DNA of 61,934 bases, counting the filler, from Dimargaris cristalligena (lineage: Eukaryota), in NCBI GenBank assembly GCA_003614675.1. It is 10 parts of 10 records of this genome, joined end to end, with 100 filler letters (N's around TTAATTAATTAA, not from the genome) between each part and the next. Parts side by side here need not be neighbours in the genome. Positions count along the whole stretch, not along the records: positions 37,417 to 43,484 come from ML003556.1; 9 more parts are not named here. One strand, 5' to 3'. Within the stretch, counting starts at the first letter, position 1. Each line of letters opens with the position of its first letter. Shown here one piece after another: positions 12,530-56,079 of the stretch. Position numbers and translations under genes: made by a program. The notes under the pieces were generated by a model that was not told the origin of the DNA, made no database searches, and saw nothing but the letters and a program-made list of their open reading frames with translations.

Positions 12530-12813
12530 GCAGGGGCTCATTCACTCATCAGGGGCGTACTTCCGATAAGTGCGAAAAATAGATCAAAAATAAAAGTAGG
12601 TAAAAAATGTGGTAAGTTCACCACACAGGGGTACAGCCTAGTTAGGGGTATATAATATACTAATGGAAAAAATACTATACTAATGAAAATGTAGGAAAAA
12701 TGACTATACTTATCAGGGGCAGGGGCTCATTTACTTATCAGGGGCATACTTCTGGTAAGTACAAAAAGTAGATAAATAATAAAAGTAGGTAAAAATGTGG
12801 TAAGTTTACCACA
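12530..12813 (+). repeat. Two diverged direct copies of a ~95-bp unit (12530-12625 and 12719-12813), each ending in a TGTGGTAA..ACCACA hairpin
   Basis: gcaggggctcatt(c/t)act(c/t)atcaggggc..aaaagtaggtaaaaatgtggtaagtt(c/t)accaca occurs twice. Confidence 0.8.
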
Positions 12814-12818
12814 ACAGT

Positions 12819-14590: not shown

Positions 14591-15024
14591 TATCAGCCCT
14601 CCTAATCCAACTTAATCCAAACCTAATGATTACCCATCCTTATTAGGCCTTATAGTACTATATTAACCCCCCCATAGTTACCCCCAGTACTATGGGGTCA
14701 CTATTTATTATATAACCCTACTCATTCTGACCCCAATGCTTTGCACTCCAAATACTCAACTTACTAATCTAAGACTTCCAGTTCCCATGAGAGTCTTCCC
14801 AATGCAAGTTCATCCAGTTGGCTTCTTTACTTCCATACCTTTGTCTTAGTAGTATTTCCCTTGGGACCTCCCTCTGGAGCCATCCCCACATATAAATAAC
14901 TGGGCCCCTCAAGGACCAGTTCTGTTCCTTAGCTTATTCATATCCCCCAGTTTACCTCAATAAACTCTATACACTCATCCCCCTTGTGCTAACTCATAAG
15001 TGTGCCCACTGCACTTCCCTGACA
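14591..15024 (+). repeat. Probable 3' LTR of the Gypsy element
   Basis: Follows a purine-rich tract (aggagtgggtaa), starts TATCAG (decayed TGTCAG) and ends CTGACA. Contains TATAAATA (~14891) and AATAAA (~14959). The partner LTR is not in the contig. Confidence 0.55.
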
Positions 15025-16552
15025 TTAACCTGCATTTGTCCTTTATTGGTTAGCACTATGCCCCATCCTAACACTAGTAGCCTGCTTGGCCGAGCCTAAG
15101 CCCTGCCTACCATTAGAAGCCTATCCTTGGGACTCTTGATGGACTAAGAGTGGTTAACCCAGGCAACAGTAGGATAATTAAGTTTGATTGGTACATATTT
15201 CTAGTGATGTTATAGTAATTGTGTGAGGAACTTGGGGTCCATGGACAAAGACCCACACTTAGATTACTGTTATTGAATTAGGTGGCCAGGACCATCCCCC
15301 TAATGTCTGTAATACTAGGTTAGATAGTATACTCCATTAAGGGGGATATGTTCAGTCTTTTATAGGCTGGATGCACATTGTATTCATCTTATGAAAATGA
15401 GTTCCAGTAACTGAACATACTCCAAATATACTTGCTGAGGTATTATTAAGCAGATTACTTTAGGAATAGAAATTACAATAACCAGCCTCCCCTAGTGATA
15501 TTTACTCTGTCCACTGTATTTTTAGTATGCTACATTATCAACCAGGGTCATTGGGCCATGTATACCAGAAATCACATATGGGTACTATTTAACAAATTTA
15601 GGATTTTCGATGGAATGCATATGGAAAAATGGGTAAGCCAATTTGTACCAGTAAACCGGGTCCATCAACTGAACACTATATTATACAGCTAGGTTGGAGT
15701 TCTACTATTCGTTTAATTCACTATAGTGTACTTCAGTCCCTACTCAGGTAATAACTATAATGTAGCCCATTTTTATTTGGCCGAATTCGGATTCATTACA
15801 GCAAAGTTAAAATATCTATATGAAAAGAAAATTAGTAGTAGTACGCAACCTAGTTTATCTTCCATCCATTATCATCATGATCTGAGGATATATACAACCG
15901 CATTCTTAATATTAATTATTTTTCAGTTAACTAAACAAATCCTTATGGCCAAATATGGTCCACTTAGTGGATCATTTTCCTAATAAGGATTCCTAAAATT
16001 TATTTTTATCCCACTAAGACTTGTAGCCCTTTCGGATCACCGTTCTCTAGCATCTGCCATGTAGGGAAGCAGAAGGAACTTAGAAGCTATTGATTGGATT
16101 GGATTTCTTGTTTCTATAATGGCACAGTGTTAAAGTTGAGAAAATATGTGCTCATAGTCCTGCAGAGTTTAATTCTTTGGTCGCTCAGATACCAGGCCAG
16201 ACAGAAACCATTCAGGGAGTCCAGAATAGAGATGATAGGCGGCAATTGTAGGGCCCATTGTGGAAACTCCGCATCTTTATGTCACATTCAAAGGGACCTC
16301 ATTTGAGCATCCATTATCAACACCACATAATATTCGCATTGAATTGAAAGAGTATGTATAATATTTAATTTGGTATTCCGATAAAGGGAGATCCCAATCG
16401 GGATATTCAGCTAGTGCTTCGTACAGTCCCGTTTTAGCCGCCACAGATGTTGAGCAGTTGTCTAATCAAGATGATACTGGTGAAGTGAGCATCTTTTGAG
16501 CTATTGTATTCCGTAAAATACGGCCCACTTGTAAAATACACACCGGCAAGAG

Positions 16553-16559
16553 TATAAAA
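16553..16559 (+). promoter_or_regulatory. Putative TATA box of the small secreted protein gene
   Basis: TATAAAA about 170 nt upstream of ATG 16725, followed by a pyrimidine-rich leader. Confidence 0.4.
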
Positions 16560-16724
16560 GCGTACCACTAGTCTGTCGCTCTGATACCAGCATCTCATCT
16601 ATTCATCTATTCAACCAGCATACTTTGTCTCCATCTCCACTTAGTCGCCGCACTCTTCCCCGGCAATTCCATCCTTCTATTTCCACCTGCTTTCTACAAC
16701 CCCAACTCACCCACCTCCTTCGCC

Positions 16725-17042
16725 ATGCAGCTCCCCTCGCTCTTCAAGACCCTTGTTGTTGCGGCCGTCGTTATAGGCGCCGCTGTCCTGGCCAGAGCTG
16801 CCTATTTACCACAGCCTGAATCCCACCTTCATCGCCGGGCGGCTGGCCTTGAGCAGTCTCTAGCTCGCCGCCATCCTGTACCTTCTAATCCCACCCCTCC
16901 GCCCAGCCCCAATCCGAATCCCCCTCCCGCTCCTCCACCGAGCCCCGTACCCACTCCCAATCCGTATCCTTCTCCCCCGCCGTCCCCTCAGGCCAAATCC
17001 AAATCCAAACAAGCCGGTGGTGGTAAGGGTTCCAAGAGGTAA
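16725..17042 (+). CDS. Small secreted proline-rich protein (105 aa)
   Basis: Hydrophobic signal peptide (MQLPSLFKTLVVAAVVIGAAVLARA), two RR dibasic sites, PSPNP/PPPSP repeats and a Lys-rich tail. Confidence 0.7.
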   Translation: MQLPSLFKTLVVAAVVIGAAVLARAAYLPQPESHLHRRAAGLEQSLARRHPVPSNPTPPPSPNPNPPPAPPPSPVPTPNPYPSPPPSPQAKSKSKQAGGGKGSKR

Positions 17043-19619
17043 CATGGTCGCCAGGATGTCTTGGTCATCTTGAGGCAGTGTTTGCCTTCAGATATGAACC
17101 CGGCTCCATAAGCTGCCCACTATGTATTGGTTCAAATTTATCAGTTTTATATTTTCGTACCCGGCCAATCCAAGTCGACCCAGTGGTGGTAGACTAACTT
17201 TGTTGTAGTACACCAGTACTATGCAACATTATAACCCGCCTACAGCTCAATATAAGGCCTAAAAGGATTGGTATATGAGGTCTGAGAAGGAAATATGTTG
17301 GACGTAATTAAAGAAATGGATAGGCGATTGGGCAGACTATCGACTGAACATGGCTTTAGGGATGTTGCAAAATAGACACTTAATGTCGATGAAACCTGGG
17401 TCAGTGTGGGAGAAAGTATAATAGGATGCAAGCCAGATATTAATTATAGAGGTAATGTGGGACAGGTTGGAGTTGATGTGCTCGCCCATGCCCGAAGCGT
17501 GGGCGGAGTGGGAAAGGGAGGGCAGGTTATTCAATCTATTGGGTATTCACTGCCAATAAGTGACATGATTATTCTATAGCCGGTGGCCCATAATAGGTAC
17601 AGACGGATTGAACAATTTTGACTGTTGGGCCTACACCCCAAATATCGCGTAGTGTTGTAAGCGAGTGGAAATGATCGTTGTTTTATTAATTGAGCTGATA
17701 TGATAGCGGTATTTAATAATAAGGAAGGTAGCAGCGATGGAGTTGCTAGTAAACTAACGAAATAATGGCGCGCTAGCAGAACACCCTTTTTATAATCGGA
17801 TTATCAGCTGCCGCGGGTCTGTTGATAAATGCATGACATATATGAGGTAGTCCCCTCTGGGTATGGATCATTAGGGTATCCCATAGAGTAGTATTTGCCG
17901 GCGCGCGGGTCTACTATAGTTCGTGGACTGGGTCGCCCTTATCAATGACCGGGGTGTCTCATTGGCGAAGTCCCCGGTTATCTAGACCTCTGCACACACT
18001 GCCATCTAGTTGAGGTATTGCTGCAGCACTATTATCATTATTGGTCTCGTCCACCGGGGTAGACGTAACAGTAGCACTGAATATCCCCCATATAAAAAAA
18101 TGAATAACTGGTGCAAGTATTTTTTAAAGAATGCTTAGGGCGAATTGAAATTGGCCAATTTACGTTTTTATAGGCGATTGTCCTGACCTAATAATGTTAG
18201 ACGGAGATGATGGCCGTTAAATAATTCTTAAAAAGTGCAAAAGAACCAAACATTTATCCAAATATTCGACTACCAACCCATGGGTAGATCTTTACATCCT
18301 GGGCCCATAACTGGGTGCCCTACTAATTGTCAAAACGGGGTATAGTATGAAGATACGCCGAGATTAGAGGCTGGTTATAACTATAAAAGAACAACCTTGT
18401 AGTCGATAACTGCATTAGTGCTGTACTGGACACTACTCAATATAGCTAACTCGTCACTCGAATTATACATTAACCATCCCCTAGTAGCTCTAACCATCAG
18501 TAGGACGTGCAGCGTCGGATGGTTTAATCCAACGCTTACCATACTACTTTTGCAATAGGCTGCTACGTACCACGATTACTTTTTCGCTGTACTTCAGACC
18601 CAAGGCCGTTGTAATCCACGTATAAAAGCTCTCTGTGTGTATTGCTAACAACTTAGCCTGGATGTTATNNNNNNNNNNNNNNNNNNNNNNNNNNNNNNNN
18701 NNNNNNNNNNNNTTAATTAATTAANNNNNNNNNNNNNNNNNNNNNNNNNNNNNNNNNNNNNNNNNNNNTATCCCATACACATATTGTGTAAAATCTTATA
18801 CAGTTGGGTTGAAGTTCACCCATTTGATGAAGCCAGATGGATGATGTTGTCTGCATCATTAGAGCGATGGACGGGAAGGTTTGATGGCCACTGGACCAAA
18901 ACAATGCAACTAATACTACTTGCTCGGGAAATCATCTATAGTTTGGGGTATACTATTAGTAACTTCTTAAAAAATGCTTCTATAGGCTAAATTGATACAA
19001 CTGTTTTCGAAGTAGATCAATTAGGCCATTTTTGCTTTACTCTAAACCATTGGAATACGGTATGTTATTTTTTGTATGTAAAACGCCAAGCGATACTTAG
19101 ATAGGTTAAGCGTGGATTCACTGCGACTAATTGACCATCCCTGTACTTCTTAAGATACACACGCCAACCCCAGACCATTGAACAATACGGTGGTAGACCT
19201 AAGTATATAGTAATTGAATAGTGAAGGGGCCCGAAGGTAATCTCATTGATGGTAGTGGTCCCGAAATAGTATTGGCACATTCCGACTGTCTAGACGTCCC
19301 TACCTACTTCTTGGCTTGTGAAGAAGAGAGGGAGTCTGACCAACCGAAACCCCCCACGTTCCGCATAGGGGGGGGGGGGGTTCTACCTACCTGTCAACTC
19401 TCCTCCATTCCGACTCCTGAACTTTTCCGTTTACCATTCGTTTTCCTAGTTGTTGGCTCAGTCTTACTAGGAGGTAGAGAAGAGAACCCTTTCCATACTT
19501 CTTTTACTATAGACCCTTCGGGATTGTGTCTCTCCCACTACACCCTCTATATACTCAATTTTTAAATATTCTCACCCCAAACACATTACTTCTCCGCCCG
19601 GCGACCGCCTTACCTCATA

Positions 19620-23765: not shown

Positions 23766-26700
23766 TCACCCTACAATATACATATCTATATATATAATTT
23801 GAGAGACTCGTATAACGATTTGACCTAACTGCAAAGGGAGTATCTGTATTTGATTATTAGTATCGGTTTCATCAAACGGCTTCTTTGATAAGCAGCCGGA
23901 TTAAACAGTCGCAGAGACCTTATGAATTTAGGAAGAGTCGCTGTGTATAATTCAATCATTAGAGAAAGGGTATACCATTAATTATTCCCCGGTGGTCTCC
24001 CATCTATATATTGATATAATTGCCAGCCGCATTACTAAGTGAAGTCAATGAGATGTTCTTTAGAAAGTCACATATGACCATGGTTATAAATTTAATAAAA
24101 GTATTGTCCAACCCCAGCACCGTTTTCTTCATTACACTCGCAATTCTTGTCTATATTATATGGTTCTATGGTCCAGCTGGCTAACTTTGGTTAGTCGTCA
24201 ATGCCATTTGGTTATAGTTCACACCACCTATTTCTATTTTATCTGTGGTAAGATTGTAATGGCACTGGTAATCATTTGAATTCAACACCCCGTTTATTCA
24301 GCTTAATTCTGTAAATAAATACCCAAAATTCAGTTGCGGTCACCTGGCTCCTTGTAAAATTATGAATATATATTAATTAATCACGTAAAACTGGTGTGGT
24401 GTAGCAGCGGATATAATAACAGTAGCAATAATAGGCGTGAATGCCTTACAATCGAATTTAAAGATGCAGTAAAATCGAACCTTAAGAATAACTAATACAA
24501 CTGTAGGCAAAACTGCCAGTGCATTTCAGAAGAATGAAAAAAGAGATGTTTTATTAAGAGCTGCAATTCTTGAAGGTATTTATACTTATGAGGTGGTTCA
24601 AGTCCACCCTGTATAGTCTTACTACTCGAATTGATTAATAATAATGAGTTTACGAATATATCTAGTTAATGATAATATCAAATACAAATGCAAGTAGTAT
24701 TTGATGTATCTCTCACTTGCTATGATATTGCAAGGCTATAAAATGATAAATCAGGACTTCACTGATAAAAGGATATAAATAGAAATTGATTAATAAGGGA
24801 ATACTACGGTCGACTAAGTGATCTCAGGTCCTACCACAATAAAACTGTTGTGCAGCGATGGGAAAAACTTAATAAAGCGGAATGAATAATAAGTCCCGAC
24901 NNNNNNNNNNNNNNNNNNNNNNNNNNNNNNNNNNNNNNNNNNNNTTAATTAATTAANNNNNNNNNNNNNNNNNNNNNNNNNNNNNNNNNNNNNNNNNNNN
25001 AAAAATAGTTTGGCCGGGATATGCTATTAGGGATTAAGCAGGCCCGGCCACAACAAGGGCTAGCTACTACATGCTTTAGTCAATCAATCATGAGGGCAAA
25101 TTGCGGAGCAGATTTATAGGCTTGAGTAAGCTTCTACTATTTGGAGCCTATTACTGATGGCCATTATCGCATGAACTACCTGTTACCAGACTCAGTGCTG
25201 AGTCTATAGATTAGATATCACAAAGGCAGATCAACTGTAATAGAGGGGAAAACAGGCGGACGTAAGTACAGACTGAAAAAGGAAGCAGCTGCAGAAGGAT
25301 AAAGCACTCTCGTAAAATACGTTTCGGGCCACTTTTTCTGGGGTTCGGCACAAATTTCAAGCTCTGGTTTTCTTACAGTGTATATCAAGAATAGAACCAA
25401 GAGAGAAGGCCGGGGTGAGGGTAATAGTCAGCTTTGGTTTCGGTGACAACTAGTCAGCTGGCCCGCTAAGGCAATAGAAAGGCAACACGTATATTGGCCT
25501 AAAATCAATTCTGCGTCAGAAATATCGGATGCACAGCGACCACCGTATGGGTAGACTGTGCGTACATGAATACAAGTAGCGGGGACCTTGGACCAAGGTG
25601 ATTATAGGGTCTAGGGGATTGTACTAATATTAAGTATACAGATTTAAGTAAGGGTCCCACTTGAATTCACCACTTTACGGAGTCTGGGCATTATTCGTGG
25701 TTTGGGCGTTTAATTTACCACTGGCACTAAGCACTCAACCCTTCGATACCCACATGTGAAGAAGAGGCTAAGCTTTAATGGAATTCATGAAGTCGTGCTT
25801 CAGTTAGGCACCTGCTTATAAATCCAAGCCCATAAAAATGGTAATTCGGTTCCTGTAGCTACCCCTAGGCCAATTCTGGCTCAAATACCTATCTCATAGG
25901 TAGAGACAGGCGTCTCCACAGAAACCCGCTATGCCCCCAGAGCTCTTCTTTGAATTCTTATTATTCAACCAGCCATATATCTAGCGCAACCCCCCCCCCC
26001 AAATAAAAAAGCTCGCATAGCCCCAACCAGCGGCATTTTCCAATGTACGCGAGGATAAGGGTAGCCTACCCAAACCCCAATAGCATGGACGGGGTGACCA
26101 CTGCATTTCCTCTCTCATATTCGGATTACGACAGTCTCGGCTGACAGATTTCTACCTTTTCCGGTTGGTTAACGGAAAACCCCCGTCTCGTACAGTTGGC
26201 TGAGCTTGGGCGAATCTCCTGGCGAGACCCCGTTGGATTGGTCGAAATTGTTCGACAATGTAGGGAGAAAAGGGGATAGTTATGTATAAAGATGGCTGAC
26301 CAAGTGCCAAAAGCCCGCTTCGTCCCAAATTACCCGCCCCCCTCACTGTTTCGTCGGCTAGGGCGCATGAACACCCCCCGAAATGTATGTACGAGGGGAA
26401 AGCACACGGCCGTTTGGTCTGACTAGCCCTCTATATGGCACACACCCCACTTTCTTCCCCTACTCATTCGCCGGATCCAACTAAAAGGCAAAACGAAGCG
26501 GGCCTATCACTGCTGGTCTGGAGTTATTCTGAGATGGTACCTGTTCCTTCGGGACGGGAACGAGTGGGCTTGGCGCATCTCAGTTACTGCGATGTAAATC
26601 TCCGGCAGATAAAGGCTATAGCAGCGGAGCGGTGTGCGTCGCAGGTAATACAGAAGAAAGGCCGTTCAACCCTTACCCCCAATGTCCCCAATACCTGACA

Positions 26701-30942: not shown

Positions 30943-31210
30943 GTAAGTCAATCCCATAAAGCTATATGTAACGATTATTATAGTAGCCAATTCGTGAGGG
31001 TTAGGAGTCAAAGATGACCCAAGTCGATGGTTTAGTTAAAATTACCACTAACCACATATTGAACTGTAACTACGTTGCCGGAAGTGGGAGTTTCCGGTGA
31101 CGGAAAACTGNNNNNNNNNNNNNNNNNNNNNNNNNNNNNNNNNNNNNNNNNNNNTTAATTAATTAANNNNNNNNNNNNNNNNNNNNNNNNNNNNNNNNNN
31201 NNNNNNNNNN

Positions 31211-33106: not shown

Positions 33107-34422
33107 GTCGGTGGGGATCTAATAGCATATAACCGGGACCAGTGGTCGAATGGGGAGAGGTCCAACGATAACCCAGACAAATAAACCGGGAAGGGCCAAT
33201 GTACTCGAAAAAAAACAATAGGGTGGAATAACAAAGATAATTATGATATTGGTATTATATTATTAATGGCAGTGAGAACGAAAGCTGGGGTACCTCAGGT
33301 TGGACTAGATTAGGTTGGAGTTGGGTTGAATGCACAGGAGGTCGAGAGATGGCTCAGACAGTGGAACGAGGCCCAGGGAGGAGGCCTATGCAGCTAAGGA
33401 CCACTGTGCTGAGCATAGGCATGTGTGTGGGTTAGTGACCAAACGGGCCCGCGGTAGGAAACAGCGGAACAAAAACAAAGATGGGGCTGCGGGCGCTGGG
33501 GAGGAGGGGGGACTGGTCACTGTGGATGCTCTACAAACAACCAAAATAGCCAAATTCAAAGAACCAAAATTAGGTTCCGTGCGCCTCCGACGATGCAGCC
33601 GATTATTTATAGTCCGCGGCCGCTGGTGCGAAGCGACGGCAGCCGTGCCCACAGTAAGGAAGTGAAGACAAAATCGGCCCCTCAGGGGCTCGTTCAAGAA
33701 ACTAATTTCATCGATTCAGGGCCATTCCGGTAATTAGGGCTTGGCCTGCTCCAAGGGCGGTCGACGGGGACTCGTCACCTAAGCTGTTGCGGCTATGAAG
33801 TCCGCTGGCTTCTCCCAAGCGTCTGTGTTTAGAAAATGCAACCACCGTGAATCTTTACTAGGGTTAGTGCACTTGGCCATTCAGCTTCTGCCTAAACCGC
33901 CCCAGTACATGGCACCATACACACCTATTATCGAACAGCCCAAATACCCCGATCCAGTATCGACATGGGGTGTAGGTGTAGATGTCGATAAAGGTGAAGG
34001 GAAAGCGCCCAGTGGGATATAGGCCCACCAACTCCGCTCCCGCCGACCACAGGGAGAGAGGCAGATAAGTCACGTGAATTCAACCATAACAATGCCTTTG
34101 CCTCGATTGTTCACCCAGCAACAATCACTGAGGATGGACAACAATTAGAAGGGGAACTAAGCTTCCTCTCTCCCGCTTATCAATATAACCCTGGCTCGTC
34201 AGATACAAGCAGTGTCGGTGGTAATAAATGCTGGGCCTATAGAGTGTATGCGTCATCCCCGCCTACTTATTTATATACGCCAGCGGGCCTTCCTCATTGC
34301 CACTAGTCCCCCCTATCCCCCATACCTGTACATCCCCCCTCCTACCCGTCCAGTCCCCCTATTCTCCGGTATTGCTAGTCTTTAGCCAAGTTTCCCCATT
34401 CTACTTATAATCCCCAGTGGCC

Positions 34423-36333
34423 ATGTCTGACCCCGAAGTCCCTACCGAAACTCCGCTCTCGGCCTCCGTCACCGAAAAAGCCCCTCTGGCGACCGAACAG
34501 GAGGAGATCGCCGAGACCAAGCCCGAGACGGCTCCCGAACCTAGTATCCCCAAAACAAAGCCAGTCACTAAGCCCGAAGCCGTGGCCATCCCTGAGCCTA
34601 GCCCAGAACCCCAGTCCGCTGCCCCTCTGGACCTCCCGGTTGCATCTGTGCCCCATCACCTCATGCCCGCCGCCATGCCCCTGAAGCCCATTTCCCACGT
34701 TGGTGGCTTCTGCAATGCCCAAGACCAACGCCGGCCCGTCGAAGCCCCTATTGTGAGTGGGAGCTACCCCGTCGGCCTGGCCGGTTCATTATACACCGTG
34801 GGCCCTGGTACCTACGACGTTAAATTCTCCCGCCAGGGCGAGTCCGGCGCCGAAACCCGCGTCTTCTCTTTCGGCCATTGGTTCGATCACCTACCCCTGG
34901 TTAATCGAATTGAATTCAACCCTCAGACCCGCTCGGTACAGTACCGCAGTCGCTTGACCGCCCGCAAAGTCCAGGATAAGATCCAGGCGGAGCACGGCTA
35001 TCTGCCCAAGCTGCCCGGCGGTCTCTACCACACCGACACGAACCAGAGTTTCTTCGCCAAGTTCATGGGTGCGAGCAAGCGCAAGTCCAAGCGCCCCGAC
35101 AAGGAAATCTGCAACGGCAATATTCTGACCGACTTCACCTGGCCCGCCCGCGAGACCTCCGGCCTCGTTTGTCTCAATCACGTCGGCATGGTCCAGGAAC
35201 TCGACCCCGTGACTCTGGACCCCCTCCACATCACCCTCTGGGACGAGGTCGACGCCGCTTTCCAGGGCACCTTCACCTCCCCGCACCCCCACTTCGACCG
35301 TACCACCAACGAAACGGTGTCCTTCACCATTGACGTGGGTTACCGCACCACGGAGTATAACGTGTTCAGCACCCGCCACAACGTGGCCGAGGGGCCCACC
35401 TCCGCCCTGCTGGCCAATTTCGTCGGCCGCCCCTCTATGGTCCACAGCTTTGCCGTGACCCCTAACTATGTCATTATTGCCGCCTACCCCATGGGGGCGG
35501 CCCTGTCCGGCTTCCGCTTCGTTTGGAAGAACAGTCTGCTCAACACCTTCGGCTTCTCTTCCACCGAGCCTACGTTGATTTACGTCGTATCCCGCACCGA
35601 GAACCGCCTCTGCACCGTTTACCAGGCCGACCCCTTCTTCAGCTTACACCACGTCAATGCCTTCGAGGACGACTCCGACAACATCTACATGGACTTGGTT
35701 GCCTACCCCAACGACACCATTCTGCATAAGCTGGATCTGCCCAACCTCCGCAACCCCCAGACCCGGCTGCAGCTCCCCGCCCCCGAAATCCGCCGCTATC
35801 TACTGGCCAGCGTGCGGGCCGAATCCCGCCGGATGAACGTCGCCACCGCCAAGCTGGCCGACTTCCCTATTGCCCACTTTTCGTGCCCGGCCAAGACCGG
35901 CGTGGAGCTACCCCGGATTAACCCGGCCTACCACCGCTGCTCCTACCGCTATGTTTACGGTATCGCTCACCAAGATGCCCAAAGTGTCAACCCCGGTTTC
36001 TGGGATGCGCTGAAGAAGGTGGACATGCTCCGGGAGGAAGACACGCTCGTCTGGTACGAGCCCGGCTGCTACCCCGGTGAACCCGTGTTTGTCGCCCGGT
36101 CCGCCGCCTCACTCGTGTCCGGCGATGACTCGTCCTCCGCCGATATCCCCATGGTGTCAGTCGGGGCTGAAGACGAAGGCTATATTATATCGGTGGTTTT
36201 CGACTCCCAACGCGAGCAGAGTTTTGTGCTGGTGCTCGATGCGGCCAACTTTATGGAAGTATGCCGGGTGGCCCTGCCCCACGTGATACCGCTATCCTTC
36301 GGCCATGGGTCATTCCGTTCCTCCATTGCTTAA
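34423..36333 (+). CDS. Carotenoid cleavage oxygenase (RPE65/CCD family) with a P/E/T-rich N-terminal extension
   Basis: Motifs HWFD, SPHPHFD, MVHSFAVT, HHVNAFED, ELPRINP, PGEPVFV and LSFGHGSF; all four Fe-binding His are present. Confidence 0.9.
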   Translation: MSDPEVPTETPLSASVTEKAPLATEQEEIAETKPETAPEPSIPKTKPVTKPEAVAIPEPSPEPQSAAPLDLPVASVPHHLMPAAMPLKPISHVGGFCNAQDQRRPVEAPIVSGSYPVGLAGSLYTVGPGTYDVKFSRQGESGAETRVFSFGHWFDHLPLVNRIEFNPQTRSVQYRSRLTARKVQDKIQAEHGYLPKLPGGLYHTDTNQSFFAKFMGASKRKSKRPDKEICNGNILTDFTWPARETSGLVCLNHVGMVQELDPVTLDPLHITLWDEVDAAFQGTFTSPHPHFDRTTNETVSFTIDVGYRTTEYNVFSTRHNVAEGPTSALLANFVGRPSMVHSFAVTPNYVIIAAYPMGAALSGFRFVWKNSLLNTFGFSSTEPTLIYVVSRTENRLCTVYQADPFFSLHHVNAFEDDSDNIYMDLVAYPNDTILHKLDLPNLRNPQTRLQLPAPEIRRYLLASVRAESRRMNVATAKLADFPIAHFSCPAKTGVELPRINPAYHRCSYRYVYGIAHQDAQSVNPGFWDALKKVDMLREEDTLVWYEPGCYPGEPVFVARSAASLVSGDDSSSADIPMVSVGAEDEGYIISVVFDSQREQSFVLVLDAANFMEVCRVALPHVIPLSFGHGSFRSSIA

Positions 36334-37316: not shown

Positions 37317-37687
37317 NNNNNNNNNNNNNNNNNNNNNNNNNNNNNNNNNNNNNNNNNNNNTTAATTAATTAANNNNNNNNNNNNNNNNNNNNNNNNNNNN
37401 NNNNNNNNNNNNNNNNCGTCGCAACTGACACACGGTCAACGTAGGGAGGGGTCCACCAAGGTGTTTCCAAGATGTCGTAGTTCACGATGAGAAGCATTCC
37501 TTTGTCGGACATTCTACTTGAAGACGACAAAAAAAACGAATTAAGGCACATACGCTACTTTTTTCGGAACATTTGTTGCAATCGACTTCATGTTGCAAAA
37601 CGCGCTTCTCGAGAGCGAACCTCCACTGGTTGAAAAACACATGATCGTTTTTTCCCAAAGTTCCGAAGTGTTGCGAAAAAAGTAGCT

Positions 37688-38944
37688 GTGATATGGATCA
37701 TACTAAAAATGTTTAAGCAGTTGACAATAATTGAGACAAACATGCACCATATCGCAATAGAAACGCTATTGAGCCATCCTAAACTAAATCAAAAAGATAA
37801 AGAAAATCATTTTCCGCCCGATTACACTTGGTGGTATAATGGTCTTTATCCTATGACTTTGCATGTCACGAAAGAAAATATCTCAATTCTTCACAGCAAA
37901 CTTTTCGAGGCAACTAGACATGATCCTTTCAACAGCATCCTGAAATGGAACGATCTCAGTGAAAAGGTCATCAAAGATTCCGTGATCAAATTTTTTATCG
38001 ATGTCGATTTTGAAGCGCAAATATTCGAACATGAGAAAGATGTTCAAAGCTTGATCAAGAACATTGTTAGTCGCATCACTGAACCCATTTTGTAATATTC
38101 TACAAAAAAGGTTTAACATCTTGCGATCAGAAATGTTTACAATCTTCACATTTATTTTCCAGACATCATCGTCGGCAACAAACAAGCAATGTATCTTAGA
38201 AATATTGCCAATCAAATGTTGGCTCGAGAGTTCCCATCGATTCACAGTGACAGCGTTATCAATAAATTGGTTTATGCGACTGGCCTCAGGATGCTATGGT
38301 GGCACAAAGGCATGATGGGAAGTAAAACATCCAAGCAGACAAAATCGATTCATGATGATCATGAAAGAATATTTCCGGGTGACAACTATAATGAGACTTA
38401 TGCATTGGTTGTTCCTGAATCTTTTCAACCGTTGGTTCCCATGCTAGAACACCTTCAATGGACCCCACTCGCAACTGACGAGGAGGAAAATGTATCCTTT
38501 GTTGATCATGCAACAAAAATTGCGGTAACAAAAATAGCAAATTGTCTCAAAATGAGAAAAAAGAGTATCCAAGATAATTTCAAAGACAAAGAACAAACAG
38601 ATTTCAAGAAAGCGGAATATTCCATAATCAAAAAAATTATTGAAGCTGAATATTCAAGAGACCGTATTATCGAGATAGTTAAAATTAAAAAATCAACCTT
38701 TGTCGCGATTGATTGGGATTACTGTCATTTCAAAATGGCAAAACATGGCGGCAACAAACGCAATAATGACCCTCTGGTCTAATTTCTTGAAGAAAATGAC
38801 GAGCTTACAAACAATGAAGCTGATTATGTGTTGTTTGCTGACAGGTACGATTTGTACCGTAAAAAGGTCAAAAATCCTGTTTTGAGACCCAAACTGAGTG
38901 ACGCTGCAAAGCTGTTTGGAGTCAAAAGGACATGCAAAAATTAG
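37688..38944 (+). pseudogene. Degenerate large-DNA-virus-type AEP primase (D5-like primase-helicase remnant)
   Basis: One frame through three TAA stops (38093, 38114, 38780): KFFIDVD (motif I), NLHIYFPDIIV (motif II), VINKLVYATGLRMLWWHK (motif III), YCHFKMAKH Zn-finger start, then DPLV*FLEEN.ELT..DYV..DLY (D5 C-terminal wHTH-like). AT-rich and intronless. Confidence 0.65.
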
Positions 38945-39589
38945 TAAGAACTGCCTCATTCCGAGGTGGAAAAGGATTTGGTGGCATTCTATTGAAACTA
39001 GAATTCACTCAATGTTTTTGAATCTGTTGTGACCTTGCAATATAGTTTTGACATCCTAACCTCGTTTCTGTCATCGCAAACAATGTCCTGACATTCTGAT
39101 TTTTTGCGTGAATTGTCACTTCATTTAACGATAATTTAACACTTTTATGTTAAAGGCTCTCCAACCAACTGAAAGTAAATAATGTAAAATTTATAAAAAA
39201 AATCAATATTAAAAAATGACATTGAAGACAATGTAAACCCCGACTTGGATTTCTAGAAAAATAAATATTTTGCATTTTTGAAGACCCTGAGTTCGTAGTT
39301 TGAAGTCTAGCTTGTCTTGATTGTCATGATTAAATCATTACTTTTTGATAAAAATGAGATAGTGAGAAACCATCTTTTTGAGAATATTTTATTATCCCGA
39401 ATATACTATAATGTCATGTAGTGACACTTATTTCTGTTTTTTTCATTGTCGCTGACAATGAATAATCCATAATCAACAAAGTTCAAGAACAAACATATTG
39501 TATGAATGAGAGATTACACACATTCATTTTGGAATTTGGAATCTTTCTGAATATAAAAGGCAAACAGTTCAATTTGAAATTTGAATAAA

Positions 39590-40523
39590 ATGCCTATTTT
39601 CCAACAAATTGTTCCAACTTTCACAAACTTTGTAACACCTAATCTTGAAGAGAATAACAAAAAAATATGTGTCCAGTTTGTTTTTAACATGTTTGAAAAT
39701 CGAGTTCATGGTGAATTCAAAGATGTTTGTGTTGTCTTGAACGCTAATCCTTCATAAATGATGCACGAACTCAAAAATTATGAACTCGGGTTTGACTGGT
39801 TTGAGTTGTATACTTCTATCGGTACAAAGCATTATATTATGTCTGTACCGGCAGCAAGGTTGATTGCGTTGCGTCACAGCAACAAAAATGTTTCCTACTT
39901 TTTACTCGAAATTCAAAAGCTTGCTCATAAATACGATAGATTGCTGAACAACTTCAAGATGAATAAAACCTTTGCCAAAAAAAAGAGAGGAGGTTTTACT
40001 CGACGCTTACAAAGAAATACCAGGAATATATCTGATCCGTATAGGATACGTCAACGGTCACCAACTACAAGGTTGAACGAACTCACAATCTGACACAGTG
40101 ATTCCAAACTCACAGAAGGGGCCTAGGGGAGCAGGTCTTCCTTGAACATTTTATGGAATGCGAGAAGAATCAAAAGATAGAAACTCTACTCAAAAGTCAC
40201 AACATTTTGACCAATAATTTACGAAAGGTCAAAATATGCGGAACAACTCACACGGAACTGATCTATACTCATAAACATATACTCGAAAACAACAACACAC
40301 CACATACAAGAGTTTACAAATTTGTTAACGAAAACTACTAGCTGACTTCGTGTGAGAGCGATTCATATCAGATCAATCCATGCTGGCTCTGTTCAAGGAG
40401 AAAGTCCCAAGTTTCAAGGGGAAACCTAACTTTTCTGCTGTGGTTACTAAGTTAGGCGCCACAGTCAGCAAACATTGTGGGCAATCTAGAATTGAAGTAA
40501 AAGGTGCGAAAAAAATGTCCTGA
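39590..40523 (+). pseudogene. Decayed virus-like DNA-binding gene(s): AntA/MSV199-like domain (39590-40093) and a D5-C-terminal-like winged helix (~40310-40523)
   Basis: In-frame TAA at 39755; the pattern F.DV...L..YELG.D..YIMSVPAARLIAL..YFLLEIQKL; downstream KFVNENY*LTSCESD plus frameshifted LALFKEK..NFSAVVTKLG..VKG. Confidence 0.4.
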
Positions 40524-41314
40524 GGGGAAACCAGATAAAGGCTCTTGATTCGAACATAATTTCTCTGTTTATTTATTGGTAAAAGTGCGCATCAAAATTG
40601 ACGAATCAAGAGTCAGAGCGAAACAGTTGATTTCGAGATGAATGAAAAAAGATCATTCTCTCTTTGTTATTTCCTTCCAATTTTTTCTGATCGATTGACA
40701 AATGATTTGTTTTTTAATAAATGAAATCATCGCCAAGAAAAGAGAAGAAGTTTTGCTCGACGCTGACAAGATATATGAAAGTATAACGAGTATGGGTATT
40801 TTCGGATCAATGTGCATGTGTTGTAGCTTTTAGGAATCCTGATTCACAACCATTCGACTTGTTGGTCACAGGCGATGCGCTTCTGACATTGTTATCTTGG
40901 TTCAGATTCACATATCCAGAACCGGGTCCCCTTGTCTGAGGGTGAGATTTTTTATTCGTTTTGGATATTGCAGTCATTGCACGGTTTAGCTCCCATTTCT
41001 TCCCGTCGCGGAGATCGTATCTGTGGTACTGAACCTTTCACCTTTCATTGGTCTCTGTAATGCTTCTGTTTTGGTATCTCTGTGAACCCTGGACGTAGAA
41101 TCTTCCACATTTGCAGGGGTTGTTCCTGGGAGTCGGGCATGACTAGTGGTGTCCTTGTTGGTACTCTTTTATACTTCATGCATTTTTAGATATAAATTTC
41201 TTTTTTTTTCAACCTAGGTCATCGATTTGGGTGTTTGTGATGATATCAATCTACAGGACGTTGCTCCTGGATGATTCCAGTTTGAATGAAAATAACAAAT
41301 GCTGTTGACAAGGT

Positions 41315-41580
41315 TGCAAACAAAAAGATCTAAAGAACATTCTCTTGAAATGCAAACAAAAAGTTCAAACGTGGATGCAAACAAAAAGATCTCAAGAACA
41401 TTCTCTTGATATGGAAACAAAAAGATCAAACATGGATGCAAACAAAATCTTATCGATAAACGTATTTGATTTTTGCAAGGGGTGATGGGAATCAAAAAGA
41501 AAATTCAAGCCTGGATGCCAACAAAAAGCTCTCAAAGATGCAAACCAAAACATCTCAAAGATGCAAATAAAAAGATCAAA
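41315..41580 (+). repeat. Array of about 8 TGCAAACAAAAAGATC-like motifs with a 61-bp higher-order unit
   Basis: Motif starts at ~41315, 41351, 41376, 41412, 41437, 41516, 41539 and 41562 (spacings 36/25/36/25/79/23/23). Confidence 0.85.
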
Positions 41581-42231
41581 CAGAAAGTTGATAACTCGCG
41601 AGTCTTATTTTCTTGTAAAATTTCAATTAGTGTTATCTCTTACTGTATGGATTGCGTCTGAAAATTTCGGTAGTCAACCGCGAGATAAACAGGGACAACT
41701 AGTCATTTTAGTATTCAACTGCAATCTTTCGATAAGATGTAATTGTAAGTCGTTTTGAACATTTTTCACTAATTCTGGTTATCGAAGGGCAACGTCCCCA
41801 GTAGAACTCGATCTCAATTTTCAAATGCAAAAATATGTCTTGCCAAGTGTAAGACTTGCTCTAGATTGTGGAACATAGCCAGTCGATGGTGGTATCGACC
41901 CTACAGATGCCGTCTACGAGGGGGAGCCAGGGAGAGTCGAGGCTGGATGAGAATAATCCGGTTATTGCGCTGCTGGCCTTCCTAGAGGCCGCCGATATCG
42001 AGGCTTTGGTGTACATTGCTCCCGTGACTCGGTCTCATGACAACTGACAACATGACTCAGACCGAGATTGGAGAATTTGTAAGCAAAAGTCGAAGCTTGG
42101 GGGAAGAGAGACTGTCAAATCTGAAACGACGCGTCAACAAAAGAACCAAGCCCAAATCCGAGCCTCCGGCTTCACGCCGCAATCTGTTCCTTCTTCGACC
42201 ACCGTTCCAACACTCACTCCGAGAAACAATC

Positions 42232-43484
42232 ATGTCCACCAACAGCCTTGACCTTCCCTCTTCTTCCACCTCGTACTGCAACCCTTGCTACGATTCCTCA
42301 TTCAAACGCCTTTTCACAAACAAACAATGCCTTATCACCCTGCTCAACTCGCTTCTACCAATCAACGTGGTCACGATTTACAGTGTGGGCCGTACCGTGA
42401 CCCGCTCCACGCCATCGACTCCTGCAACTTCAGCCCCAGCGTCACCCACCACGCGCCCTCGTCCCCACTCCTTCTCCGGTGCATCCACCTCCCCTTTTGA
42501 CGACCTGACCATCGCCGATACCGAGGAAGTTGGCGAATTTCCCGGGGCCCGCGTGGTTCGGTACGACATCAAGGCCGTTACCATGGAGGGGACCACTGTC
42601 GACGTCGAGATGCAGAGAGCGCCCCAGCAATTCTTCTTGCATCGTATGGAGTATTACGCGTCTCGCCTTCTTGTGACGAGCCAAGGGTACTCCGGGAAGA
42701 AGGTCCCTCGAGACATCGTCGCAGAGGCGAGGATGCAAGACCCCGACACGCTGGCCGGTTTCAAGGTAGATTGTATGCGGGTTCTTTGAAAAACAAGCGG
42801 TTATTGGAATCTTCACGACTGCTGCGAGTGCGAATTTCCCCACCTCCACTTTCAGTACTAACGGTAGCCACGTTAAAACCCTCTAGGAGAAGCGCCCAAA
42901 TGTCGAGCAAAAGAAAGTACCATGGACATACGAACTTCAACCTGTCTACATTATCGCAATCTGCGAGTTTCCGGTATGTTACTTGTGTGGAGATTCAAAT
43001 CCCGTTTTTCCCTACCCCCGTCTAACGCATTTTAACTCGATTCATCTTCGGTCAGCTCTCCTCCATCAAAGGAACGCCCCCGCATCTACATGACCGATAC
43101 GTTTCGTGGGCCCAGCCTGCGTTCGATCCCGAAAAATGCATCCCTCCGCTCGACCGAAACACCATCTTCCTGCCTTTCCATGATGTCCTCCACTACTGCC
43201 TGGTCTCACTCCCCGCGTTTCGCGGTCAATTTAATGCGAACAATACATCGTTCGCCAGACCGATTCCCTCAATAATGGACATGATCCTGTGGATTCTTGC
43301 CTACGCAGGTGATGACAGACCGCGGGCAATAATCCCTAATGACATCTTGGGCAGCAGCGTGCTGAAACCGTGAGTTCCTTAACTTGTTCGCCGGGTGAAT
43401 TGGGGGGGTTATCGAGGTCTCTGTTTTATTGCTGACTGGTGTATCTCTGATTGCCTTTATTGCTCTATGCAGGCTGCTCGAACG
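42232..43484 (+). CDS. Intron-containing Rpn family / PD-(D/E)XK (PDDEXK_2-type) nuclease; exons 42232-42765, 42887-42973, 43056-43369, 43473-end (3'-truncated)
   Basis: NPCYDSSFKRLF..LITLLNSLL, RYDI, VDVEMQ, RMEYYASRL, YELQPVYIIAICEF and LHYCLVSLPAF..ILWIL. Three GT-AG introns with TACTAAC/TCTAAC/GCTGAC branch sites keep the frame. An alternative start lies at 42037. Confidence 0.8.
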
Positions 43485-43717
43485 NNNNNNNNNNNNNNNN
43501 NNNNNNNNNNNNNNNNNNNNNNNNNNNNTTAATTAATTAANNNNNNNNNNNNNNNNNNNNNNNNNNNNNNNNNNNNNNNNNNNNTCGCCCATATGGTGGC
43601 CACAAGCCGGGTCAAATTGAAAAACCCATTGCCAATGCGGCACAGCGGACAACAAACCAGCGAGTATGAAACACCCTTCGTAGAGACATCGAACAAACTG
43701 GCCTGGCACTTGGCCGA

Positions 43718-49459: not shown

Positions 49460-50120
49460 GACTTGGGGGCCTCGTACTTTTGGATACCACACTATACGCC
49501 TACTCTATAACCAGTTTATGAAGCAATTTGCCCAGCATTGCGAAATCCTCTACATGTGTTACCTTCTGCTCTAAACTATAGTTGGTATACGTTATATTAA
49601 TAAAAGCATGCGGTGAGGATCACTTCTCTACTATTTTAATNNNNNNNNNNNNNNNNNNNNNNNNNNNNNNNNNNNNNNNNNNNNTTAATTAATTAANNNN
49701 NNNNNNNNNNNNNNNNNNNNNNNNNNNNNNNNNNNNNNNNTGTTGTTCGAGAGTCTCCATTTCTTCGGTTTACCAATTTAATTATCTATACTATTTCCTC
49801 CAGAGTCCAACGCTCTACTCCCCGCATTCGCCAAAAAGGTACTTAATAGCCAATCTAACGACTACCGATATACCTGTGGAATATATAGCCTGGAACTTGC
49901 CTACTTTGATATTCACAATCGCTTTGGCGTGCTTAAATAATATCTGTTTTATCATTGAGAGGAACCTGGTTTCCCTGTCCACCGGTATAAGGTCATGTGA
50001 CTAACTGCTATGCTGGTCGTATACACTTTCACCTCATTCTACCGCTTCTCCTGTTCAGTACGGCTAGATTTACCACCACCTGCGGCCCTCATCAACTTCC
50101 CGTTTATACACACACATACT

Positions 50121-54463: not shown

Positions 54464-56079
54464 GCGGTCAAGTTAAGAGAAATGAGTGGGATGGGTTGCC
54501 TTGAAAAATTCACCCGATCCCAGAAGAAGTCTAAGAAACTAATAGATATACATAAATACTCAATTAGAAAAGAAAGGGAAAGGTTTAACTGGGCGGTATA
54601 ACAAAGAATCCGTTAAATGAGGTAAAAATTACTGGTTAAAAAAATATTCACCCGGATATTTTCCCACATATTTTAAAACGTCATCCAGCCAGGCCGAATT
54701 TCATACATACTCTATAATATTGTCAGTATGACATCCAGGTTGATAAGTTTGCTCCTCAATTAGCTAGATGCTTGCAGTTTGGTGGGGCCTGCCAATAATA
54801 GCTAGACTCTAATTTACGCCTGGGTAAAACAAACCACCAGCGCGGACTCAGGTGGCTGTAGACACCACTGCACTACTTCGCTATTATAAAAGTCGCCACC
54901 ACCATAAAAACGCCAGCGTTGACGACCTACCTAAATAAACGGACTTAGTCAGTCTCTGAGCAATTCCCCGCCTCCTTCCAATCCAGTTTATCAGACAATA
55001 GTCAGCGAGGGTGCGGTATTCAAGTGTTAGAAAACAGTACATATATCCTAAAGCAGAAGTCGGCTGGAAATTCCCTTGGCATAAAGATCAAGCACTAATC
55101 CTAAAGTAGAAGGATCTTTACACTGCTACATTTCTTAATATTGCTTCCCCAGTAACCAAACTACTTGGGGCCAAGTGCCATTAGTCAGAGTACAAAAATC
55201 CTGGGGCCATCTAAAATAATGACAGGGACCTAACCCCATTTCAGGAAATTGGTACATTCTATGTATCATCATCAAGATATCATTATCAAAGACGTGCTTT
55301 TCTTCATCATTAGCCTGCTTTCACTGTTATGGGCTTAGGTTGGAAACTCCCTCTTTTATGAACTAGTTAATACAGTGGAATGTCAGTCCATTGGTGGAGT
55401 TTCTCAGATACCAGCACTGTAGCAATACCATATGCTGGGCTGTTTATGGATTTCAAGTAACCCCCAGACTGACTGTCATGGCTGGTTAATTTGAGCTACA
55501 AGAATAACCAGCCATATAAGTAAAAAAACCCATACTAACAAATGGGTGAAATTAATATTTAATATTATCAGAATATATACCCATTATCCTACTATGTTTT
55601 ATTCCCATTATTTTATTCCCTGTATTACTTAGTTATTGATTTGTATTTATTAGTTGTCATCATTCTTCTCCTACCCCTTGAGTTGGGATATAACCCCAAC
55701 CATTCCCCCACAGCTTGCTCTTTAGCTTGCAACTCCTTTTTTGTTTTCCCTTTTCGATATCTAGTCTAATAAACCTATTTTCCATCCTTCAAANNNNNNN
55801 NNNNNNNNNNNNNNNNNNNNNNNNNNNNNNNNNNNNNTTAATTAATTAANNNNNNNNNNNNNNNNNNNNNNNNNNNNNNNNNNNNNNNNNNNNATTTTTA
55901 TCTATAGAACCATTTATTAGCAAAAGACCCCGCGTATTGGACGCAGGGGTCCGACTCCGTTGGAGGGGAGGTTGACCTCAGCCACCGGCAACCTAAATGA
56001 ACGACCCGCCGCTAGGCAAACTATATATGGTACATCGCCTCTAAAAGACACGCCGGCTAGCGCTAGCCGCTGGCCCTTG

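Follow-up and report, generated by a model that had tools for sequence, protein, structure and literature searches.

In Polinton-like viruses and virophages the primase is fused with an SF3 helicase of the D5 type, and these elements are found integrated in multiple copies in eukaryotic genomes. Giant viruses have also left sequences in fungi. The Mycodnaviridae are giant-virus sequences in zoosporic fungi (PLoS Biol 2026, PMC13533422); Gong et al. 2020 (PMC7017919) reported NCLDV-like endogenous elements of fungi. In the accessible text of these two papers, assemblies of chytrids and other early-diverging fungi display viral hallmark genes, including that of the D5 helicase-primase, with multiple independent endogenisations. 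The original prediction for the locus described here, that few such viruses are described from fungi, has been overtaken, as the same text shows. The name Blyttiomyces, which is that of the gene models closest to this locus, was not found in the main texts of PMC13533422 and PMC7017919. A search of the literature on Blyttiomyces and giant or endogenous viruses showed nothing relevant besides the GVHoP preprint, in which Blyttiomyces is among the genera listed for two fungal giant-virus signal features.

The window, i.e. the whole stretch of 61,934 nucleotides that was analysed, consists of ten separate contigs of ~6 kb with N44-TTAATTAATTAA-N44 spacers between them, and it should not be taken as one locus. 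The gene remnant is found on a contig of 6,068 bp; the other nine contigs carry housekeeping genes. The upstream GC-rich gene (34411–36333) is situated on another contig and is therefore no neighbour of the remnant.

A single plus-strand frame, positions 37634–38944, carries AEP primase motifs, half of a zinc finger and a helicase tail, and ends with a TAG at 38942–38944. The remnant probably starts with the Met at 37742, the alternative being 37709. With P0005 (aa 65–359) and P0006 (aa 36–360) as queries, tblastn covers 37856–38761. The features of the remnant are as follows.

37742..38761, + strand: 5′ part of the pseudogene, AEP domain and first zinc-finger half (tblastn, HMMER, hhalign, AlphaFold2)
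38000..38008, + strand: AEP motif I, Asp-Val-Asp (D-V-D), the two Asp columns being Asp in 71/71 and 69/71 relatives
38093..38095, + strand: in-frame TAA, stop 1
38114..38116, + strand: in-frame TAA, stop 2, polymorphic
38147..38149, + strand: AEP motif II His, present in 73/73 relatives and also in the window
38261..38263, + strand: catalytic position of motif III, Asn for Asp (alignment A4)
38723..38746, + strand: first half of a PrimPol/UL52-type zinc finger, Cys at 38723–38725 and His at 38744–38746, then Gly-Asn
38756..38761, no strand: junction of the internal gap, 6 nt fitting both sides (tblastn end and start coordinates)
38762..38941, + strand: C-terminal tail of a D5-type helicase protein, in the frame of the AEP part (tblastn)
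38780..38782, + strand: in-frame TAA, stop 3, with Glu at the same column in P0026 and P0031
38947..39021, + strand: end of the gene after the frameshift, matching the last ~20 residues of P0031/P0026

AEP motifs I to III had been predicted. Motifs I (DxD) and II (His) are borne out, and the surroundings of motif III are kept (..VY.TGLRMLW.HKG..), but the catalytic Asp of motif III is an Asn. The Asp is found in 73/73 non-Blyttiomyces relatives in alignment A4 and in the paralogs P0002 and P0004; the Asn is shared by the window copy and P0003. The first half of a PrimPol-type zinc finger is present as predicted, its Cys and His falling on columns of the relatives' C..H..N that are Cys in 65/66 and His in 67/70. 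The next two zinc-finger Cys of the relatives are absent from the window copy and fall in the gap. An AlphaFold2 model of the remnant gives a pLDDT of 75.4 overall and mostly >90 for residues 111–290. The read-through translation of the remnant does not match the AEP family of Pfam (PF23162 AEP_C962R) even at E<=10, and searches of PHROGs and of PDB (phmmer) with it yielded nothing meaningful.

The similarity is not due to chance: a HMMER search of 1.84 billion representatives shows 78 matches at E<=1e-3, 34 of them at E<=1e-10, and the best full-length relative is P0005 (E=1.3e-30). Long relatives (800–1100 aa) match remnant aa ~50–377 by their N-termini, and the full-length relatives are ~1000-aa proteins of the composition AEP_C962R, D5_N and DUF5906. 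In the 10 best long relatives, Pfam finds AEP_C962R in 6/10 (one below the cut-off), D5_N in 7/10 and DUF5906 in 4/10 (one below the cut-off); in a second set of 10 relatives AEP_C962R is found in 4/10.

The family profile, when searched against PDB, matches three sequences of ASFV C962R (3e-22 to 2e-20) and four of poxvirus D5/E5 (~1e-18 to 4e-19), and nothing else. An hhalign comparison of A4 with a PF23162 AEP_C962R protein on an NCLDV contig gives a probability of 99.6% (E=6.9e-25). A fold search of BFVD, whose content is skewed towards giant viruses, shows 51 matches at E<=1e-3, and the 34 named proteins among the 50 listed consist of 33 from Nucleocytoviricota and one from a herpesvirus. 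Fold matches in PDB include MPXV E5, ASFV PrimPol, HSV UL52 and VACV D5, with marginal E-values (one match at <=1e-3) and TM scores by query of 0.21–0.34. IMG/VR gave no match with the remnant protein alone; smaller alignments gave 32 loci (1 + 31), all distant at 22–34% identity, and a scan of JGI metagenomes gave 2 distant loci. Both of the two IMG/VR loci inspected, out of the 32 found, carry NCLDV hallmarks: the first has Rpb2, MutS with HNH and topoisomerase IA, and the second has three NCLDV capsid genes and a capping methyltransferase.

Among 20 relatives looked up in their clusters, the only ones with a name are five fragmentary gene models of Blyttiomyces helicus, 53–98% identical to the remnant and situated on five different contigs (P0002, P0003, P0004, P0026 and P0031). 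A quick tree was built from 70 of A4's 80 rows, those spanning >=80% of query aa 186–282. In it the four AEP-bearing rows group in one clade with an SH-aLRT of 99, and this clade is ~33% identical to its closest outside relatives. The copies, the window copy included, number at least four and have diverged; the gene models concerned all go by the name B. helicus.

The tail is 53% identical to P0031 aa 196–257 and 64% identical to P0026 aa 84–141 (tblastn, E=6e-18 and 1e-19), in keeping with the predicted direct run of the primase part into a D5-like C-terminus. In the tail, which had been labelled wHTH, residues 402–436 of the AlphaFold2 model have a pLDDT <50. About 60 residues of the tail lie upstream of a frameshift, and altogether the remnant retains ~85 C-terminal residues. 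All three TAA codons of the original prediction were located, but the sequence is not in one frame to the end: homology continues beyond 38944 in another frame, and there is therefore a frameshift near 38942 as well, which had been missed.

Homology on the left (P0005 aa 65–359) stops at 38761 and homology on the right (P0031 aa 196–257) begins at 38756. Alignment A1 shows that P0005 residues 358–947 are skipped by the remnant, and the gap amounts to 580–610 residues relative to five full-length relatives (~1.8 kb). What is missing is the latter half of the zinc finger, D5_N and the ATPase core of the SF3 helicase. The remnant has neither a Walker A nor an SF3 segment, Pfam finds no D5_N or helicase in it, and the predicted absence of the helicase core thus stands. 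P0031 has a Walker A segment upstream of the homologous tail.

Other changes affect 6 of 25 conserved AEP/zinc-finger columns in the window copy, the Asp to Asn of motif III among them. Stop 2 is a sense codon in contigs from sequencing runs X1 and X6, which have T at position 38116. Together, the disabling lesions are three stops, a frameshift, a gap of ~590 residues and lost conserved residues, and they are incompatible with a replicating virus. As read from its sequence, the locus is a copy of a D5/C962R-type primase-helicase gene that is truncated internally and non-functional.

Two other ideas were rejected. Reassignment of TAA was set aside with the finding that 5 of 12 large open reading frames of the assembly end in TAA; that of RPE65 does so with its domain reaching to 4 residues before the stop. 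RIP-like decay was also rejected: TpA in the pseudogene is depleted (o/e 0.49) and not enriched, and CpG o/e is 0.88.

The remnant is probably that of an NCLDV-type D5/C962R primase-helicase gene, from a virus or virus-like DNA in a chytrid lineage, in the course of decay. The assignment to NCLDV is based on the architecture, the profile and fold matches and the two inspected contigs. A large DNA virus or virus-like element would have contributed DNA to the genome of a chytrid lineage, and the viral DNA would then have been copied, or the entry repeated. The copies would decay neutrally, and the gap could have come from a deletion, or from end-joining of fragments, at the 6 nt that belong equally well to either side. 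At present the remnant would have no function.

Public sequencing runs bear on how the two parts came together. The remnant contig is present in six runs of three studies, with 76–87% of sampled words found. In runs X1, X2 and X6, which are from three studies, the broken locus is ~99–100% identical and carries different SNPs, the genotypes being ~0.3–1% apart. Runs X7 and X8 show small shares (0.10 and 0.06), X7 as a few 151-nt pieces at a depth of ~2. None of the runs listed for the contig is an RNA run. The gene had been predicted to be internally deleted. The missing 580–610 residues agree with this, but since the junction coincides with a fork in three runs, the gap may also be read otherwise than as one clean internal deletion. 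Contigs of X1, X2 and X6 have loose ends exactly at 38761 that lead to another, GC-richer left flank, which was not found in the window. The form with this alternative flank has a depth of 7.07 in X2 and 8.05 in X6, in comparison with 3–4 for the AEP part, and in all three runs the right-hand part is 2–3 times as deep as the AEP part (ratio of AEP to right-hand depth ~0.3–0.5). These data would suit a possible but less likely history in which the AEP part and the tail are separate pieces brought together at integration, or in which a repeated segment of 4.7 kb has an AEP fragment next to its left edge in only one of its copies; in the extreme, the join would be an assembler path at the fork. 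Yet the two parts are collinear and share orientation and frame, and both fit the 6 nt. One X1 contig (record 1, 37469–38802) crosses the junction by 42 nt and is the only listed contig to do so. Random amplification chimeras, moreover, would not recur across three genotypes.

The features on the 3′ side of the remnant are these.

39022..41800, no strand: AT-rich spacer, GC 0.36, no gene recognised (six-frame read-through Pfam scan)
39758–40093: orphan 111-aa open reading frame inside the AT-rich spacer (Atlas: weak lead, 0.82)
41308–41587: minisatellite inside the AT-rich spacer (TRF)
42232..43373, + strand: PDDEXK_2 nuclease ("transposase") gene (Pfam PF12784, 4e-14)

The six-frame read-through scan of 38946–41900 showed no Pfam families, and the transition from AT-rich to GC-rich sequence near 41800 is spanned by contigs from X1, X2 and X6. 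The PDDEXK_2 gene is the sole gene linked to the remnant. Its homology falls into two blocks ~290 nt apart, and it has a possible spliceosomal intron. Capsid, PolB and packaging ATPase genes were not found on the 6-kb contig in Pfam and read-through scans; neither were a tRNA, an Rfam family or terminal inverted repeats of note.

A smaller primase-helicase-bearing element (Polinton-like virus, virophage or other mobile element), multiplied in the genome, is an unlikely donor, although several observations would suit it. The remnant gene is multi-copy, with copies 53–66% identical, and so is the linked PDDEXK_2 "transposase-family" nuclease gene, to which the B. helicus paralog P0090 is 67% identical. 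The 6-kb contig is without an NCLDV hallmark gene, and the closest full-length relatives are metagenome proteins, several of them on contigs of 4–6 kb. Other relatives, however, are on contigs of 107–170 kb, both inspected IMG/VR contigs are NCLDV, and the named profile and fold matches are nearly all from Nucleocytoviricota. The named fold matches are not decisive on this point because of the bias of BFVD towards giant viruses. An NCLDV-type donor continues to be the preferred reading.

Integration of the remnant contig into a fungal chromosome is plausible but stays at this level because the dinucleotide signature of the contig is unlike that of the nine housekeeping contigs and its sole linked gene is multi-copy. 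TpA o/e is 0.47–0.61 in all three parts of the remnant contig versus 0.92–1.08 in the nine others, CC/GG is 0.88–1.02 versus 1.20–1.39, and delta* (x1000) is 137–233 between this contig and the nine others versus 24–160 among the latter. Such a signature, in a highly fragmented assembly and on a contig of only 6 kb, could point to DNA outside the fungal chromosome, either of a co-sampled organism or of a defective episomal or viral genome. We consider this quite improbable, as the essential primase-helicase is too broken for a replicating virus, the broken form is repeated in three genotypes, paralogs are found on fungal-annotated contigs of up to 31 kb and the linked gene may have a spliceosomal intron.

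A cellular PrimPol pseudogene, or a live gene with TAA read through, has next to no probability: human PrimPol is among the fold matches (rank 21, E=3.5e-3) and the zinc-finger spacing is PrimPol-like, but the strong relatives are all ~1000-aa helicase fusions, the remnant itself has a helicase tail, TAA terminates host open reading frames, and the frameshift and 590-residue gap persist whatever the genetic code. The HMMER relatives and the profile and fold matches thus uphold the prediction of a giant-virus-type AEP/D5 gene and not a cellular PrimPol.

The Blyttiomyces fragments, of which at least four bear the AEP part and two the helicase part, might with the co-amplified PDDEXK_2 genes represent a lineage of large DNA viruses or primase-helicase mobile elements that is so far undescribed, is specific to chytrids and entered or multiplied repeatedly; we put this forward as a speculation that is rather unlikely to hold. 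Such a lineage may still have a live member, which is conceivable because P0031 retains an intact Walker A and the downstream helicase motifs. The remnant also shows that public gene models of the fungus, such as P0003 (161 aa, "hypothetical protein"), consist of fragments of viral pseudogenes.

The remnant adds a case to those of giant-virus DNA already on record from zoosporic fungi, and no new question is opened by it since such elements have already been published. It is a well-documented fossil of a giant-virus-type replication gene from a chytrid lineage whose viral content is undiscussed in the main texts searched, and it adds to the evidence that zoosporic fungi are long-standing hosts of large DNA viruses. 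The likeness to the Mycodnaviridae and the fungal NCLDV-like elements, which in the accessible text include a D5 helicase-primase in chytrid assemblies, is one of gene content.

Among the Polinton-like viruses and virophages, no primase-helicase appears in the named BFVD matches listed. Cellular PrimPol (human, PDB 5L2X) has the AEP clade and zinc-finger type in common with the remnant but is without a helicase, whereas the remnant keeps a helicase tail and its relatives are helicase fusions. The NCLDV D5-like primase-helicases (ASFV C962R/AsfvPrimPol, vaccinia D5, monkeypox E5) display, like the remnant, the DxD, the His and (D)..VY.TGLRM followed by a Cys/His zinc finger. Identity to the named viral proteins is only 9–18% in the fold matches, in comparison with ~33% for close relatives. 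The NCLDV proteins have D5_N and an SF3 helicase, as do the full-length relatives of the remnant. The window copy differs from them in having neither of these, in lacking the second zinc-finger half, and in carrying stops, a frameshift and the Asn of motif III.

The pseudogene occupies a single plus-strand frame at 37634–38944, interrupted by TAA at 38093, 38114 and 38780, as in the original prediction, and closed by TAG at 38942. The remnant gene probably starts at Met 37742. Its read-through translation, P0001, written with X for each stop, contains these elements of the primase domain (AEP) and zinc finger:

38000–38008, plus strand, AEP motif I, D-V-D
38147–38149, plus strand, AEP motif II His
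Cys 38723, His 38744, then Gly-Asn, plus strand, first half of the zinc finger

All three AEP motifs that had been proposed are located in P0001. The motif III block is clear (..VY.TGLRMLW.HKG..), with its Asp, present in 73 of 73 non-Blyttiomyces relatives, replaced by Asn. The half zinc finger is found as described: the first Cys, His and Asn align with relatives in alignment A1 and by tblastn, and the second Cys pair is absent. Six of the 25 strongly conserved AEP/zinc-finger columns are altered in the window. The last approximately 24 codons lie in a shifted frame, at 38947–39021, where they match the ends of P0031 and P0026, two Blyttiomyces helicus gene models; thus the gene carries a frameshift as well. 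RIP-type mutation and an altered genetic code were both rejected as the source of the stops.

The match of P0001 to its relatives takes in the AEP domain and, of the zinc finger, the first Cys, His and Asn; it ends at 38761 (A1, tblastn). Homology restarts at 38756 with the reading frame unchanged, now to the final ~60 residues of the protein. The skipped portion corresponds to residues 358–947 of P0005, a full-length relative of ~1000 aa, and across five full-length relatives it is 580–610 residues long. It takes in D5_N and the second Cys pair as well as the Walker A/B helicase core, which is therefore missing, as had been claimed. The D5-like C-terminal tail holds as homology to the tail of the helicase protein; its winged-helix fold is putative, the model being unreliable there (pLDDT <50 at residues 402–436).

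Direct sequence searches with P0001 (Pfam, PHROGs, PDB) gave nothing meaningful. A HMMER search of 1.84 billion representatives yielded 78 proteins at E ≤ 1e-3, 34 of them at E ≤ 1e-10, and the long matches (about 800–1100 aa) align by their N-termini to query residues ~50–377. Of the ten best long matches, six have a Pfam AEP_C962R match (one of them below cut-off), seven have D5_N, and four have DUF5906, which is the D5-type SF3 helicase region (again one below cut-off). When the 80-row family alignment is compared profile to profile with an AEP_C962R protein (itself Pfam AEP_C962R at 5e-21), the probability is 99.6% and E = 6.9e-25, the match covering the AEP motifs and zinc finger. Against PDB the family profile finds only seven distinct sequences, three of ASFV C962R and four of poxvirus D5/E5.

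The AlphaFold2 model of the window translation has a mean pLDDT of 75.4, with residues 111–290 mostly >90. It matches 51 BFVD structures at E ≤ 1e-3; 34 of the 50 listed carry names, 33 being Nucleocytoviricota primases or primase-helicases and one a herpesvirus helicase. PDB fold matches are marginal (one at E ≤ 1e-3, TM-scores low) and include MPXV E5 (primase and zinc-binding domain), ASFV PrimPol, HSV UL52 and VACV D5, with human PrimPol at rank 21. Profile, fold and alignment thus bear out the nature and truncation of the gene, an internally truncated viral-type AEP/D5 primase-helicase.

A giant virus is the likelier donor, but it may have been something smaller, a Polinton-like element or virophage. 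Distant relatives (22–34% identity) are encoded at 32 IMG/VR loci, and the two inspected are both plainly NCLDV contigs, one with Rpb2, topoisomerase IA, MutS with HNH and a full D5, the other with three NCLDV capsid genes, a P2 minor capsid protein, a capping methyltransferase and EsV-1-7 repeats. The closest full-length relatives are metagenome or read-assembly proteins of ~26–35% identity, some on contigs of 107–170 kb. A cellular PrimPol as source is ruled out: in the relatives the primase is fused to a helicase, and the remnant retains a helicase tail.

The only close relatives of the primase-helicase remnant are five Blyttiomyces helicus gene models on five different contigs:

P0003, 161 aa of the AEP part, 98% identity to the window, contig of 6.9 kb
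P0002, 144 aa of the AEP part, 63% identity, contig of 18.7 kb
P0004, 94 aa of the AEP part, 66% identity, contig of 31 kb
P0026, helicase tail, 64% identity, contig of 24 kb
P0031, Walker A to C-terminus, 53% identity, contig of 3.7 kb

The P0003 variants, 38268 T>C and 38617 A>G, are exactly those of contigs from the public sequencing runs X1 and X6; thus P0003 is the pseudogene locus in another genotype. It is annotated as 'hypothetical protein', and P0002 seems likewise to be a pseudogene inside a gene model. In a quick tree of 70 of the 80 rows of the family alignment, the four AEP-bearing rows form one clade (SH-aLRT 99) on a long stem. The window is therefore probably from B. helicus or a near relative, where the family is present at three or more diverged loci, most of them visibly fragmentary. 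Residues ~230–283 of P0002 (435 aa) resemble a decayed AEP motif I/II region with the DxD gone.

Nine N44-TTAATTAATTAA-N44 spacers split the window into ten separate contigs, longest first, from 6,169 to 6,041 bases; features flanking a spacer are therefore not neighbours.

Spacers 1–5: 6170–6269, 12430–12529, 18669–18768, 24901–25000, 31111–31210
Spacers 6–9: 37317–37416, 43485–43584, 49641–49740, 55794–55893

No linkage holds to the GC-rich RPE65-family gene at 34411–36333, nominally 'upstream', which is on a different contig. The pseudogene contig has four parts, a minus-strand ORF start, the pseudogene, an AT-rich spacer and a GC-richer PDDEXK_2 part:

37417–43484, pseudogene contig (piece seven), 6,068 bp, GC 0.41
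37417–37514, minus strand, divergent ORF start, Met 37514, 32 codons, running off the left contig end
2.8 kb, AT-rich stretch between the pseudogene and the GC-richer part
39758–40093, plus strand, orphan ORF in the AT-rich spacer, intact, 111 aa, Met start
41308–41587, minisatellite in the AT-rich spacer, nested 23-, 36- and 61-nt units, 2.3–3.5 copies, 67–89% matches
42232–43373, plus strand, PDDEXK_2 nuclease ('transposase family') gene, PF12784, 4e-14

A fork in run X1 falls at 37451, inside the minus-strand ORF. The AT-rich spacer holds no recognisable gene, and a six-frame Pfam scan of it is empty; its 111-aa ORF has no Pfam match, and the protein atlas links it only weakly with MULE transposase clusters (score 0.82). 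At the minisatellite the public-run contigs break up and depth is raised.

In X1, X6 and a third public run, X2, a second contig form attaches 38761 onwards to another, GC-richer left flank, which is absent from the window.

X1 depth: AEP part 498; right-hand part 1005–1360; alternative form not listed
X2 depth: AEP part 3.6–4.2; alternative form 7.07; right-hand part 10.7–12
X6 depth: AEP part 2.7–3.7; alternative form 8.05; right-hand part 10.4–12.2

In X2 and X6 roughly two-thirds of the depth belongs to the alternative form. From this form and the depths, the right-hand 4.7 kb occurs in at least two contexts, the AEP-linked one being the minority. The gap junction coincides with the edge of this duplicated segment, and among the pieces listed the AEP-to-tail junction is spanned only by X1 record 1 (37469–38802). 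In favour of a genuine deletion within a single gene, the two parts are collinear, on the same strand and in frame, 6 nt fit both sides, and three genotypes share the arrangement. X2 also has a low-depth joint that goes back from 39694 to 38787.

The linkage of AT-rich and GC-richer parts is real, since contigs of three runs bridge the transition near 41800 (X2 39656–42463, X6 41010–43408, X1 41352–43408). P0090, a B. helicus paralog of the PDDEXK_2 gene, is 67% identical to it, with homology in two blocks (42247–42780 and 43053–43370) ~290 nt apart; the interval includes a candidate GT...TACTAAC...AG intron near 42766–42884. A 1-nt insertion polymorphism is found at 42788/42789 in X1 and X6 contigs. 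The nine other contigs carry MutS, kinesin, RPE65, IPK, SLS1, Nup133 and PanE genes. TpA o/e is 0.47–0.61 across three parts of the pseudogene contig (whole 0.55) versus 0.92–1.08 in the other nine, CC/GG 0.88–1.02 (whole 0.99) versus 1.20–1.39, and delta* (x1000) 137–233 versus 24–160 among the nine. The oddity extends to the GC-rich end, and given these values the entire 6 kb, nuclease gene included, may be foreign DNA. The 6,068-bp contig shows no undoubted junction with host sequence, and integration into the host genome is plausible. Among the other contigs, CpG is markedly depleted in 1–6169 (o/e 0.56) and 12530–18668 (0.37), the remainder giving 0.73–0.94.

A genomic fossil is favoured over a live virus or contaminant, because the damage to the gene is too great for a replicating virus, one stop varies among genotypes (X1 and X6 have 38116 A>T), and the same broken locus recurs in runs of three studies, with contigs differing by ~0.3–1%.

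Rhizophagus irregularis reportedly carries a 1.5-Mb viral region. Giant-virus genes and genomes described as Mycodnaviridae are reported from zoosporic fungi (PMC13533422), and NCLDV-like endogenous elements with D5 helicase-primase from several fungal phyla (PMC7017919); the supposed rarity of fungal large DNA viruses is, on these sources, out of date. The name Blyttiomyces is absent from the main texts of both papers and of the preprint of the former; supplementary tables may list it. In the available text of the GVHoP preprint (10.64898/2026.09.08.750034), Blyttiomyces is bracketed after two fungal giant-virus signal features, together with Allomyces, Chytriomyces and Synchytrium; going by that text, Blyttiomyces-associated viral sequence may already be deposited. 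The literature search found no paper pairing Blyttiomyces with 'giant virus' or 'endogenous viral'.

As far as these sources go, the remnant adds to the already known giant-virus-type sequences of zoosporic fungi. Intact relatives use the AEP domain to make primers, the zinc finger to hold the template DNA and the hexameric D5_N/SF3 helicase to unwind the fork, as established for ASFV C962R and poxvirus D5/E5. The window copy cannot prime, hold template or unwind, and would be neutral, decaying DNA, the leftover of a virus or virus-like element. ASFV C962R and poxvirus D5/E5 are the systems to which its family is matched by both profile and fold.
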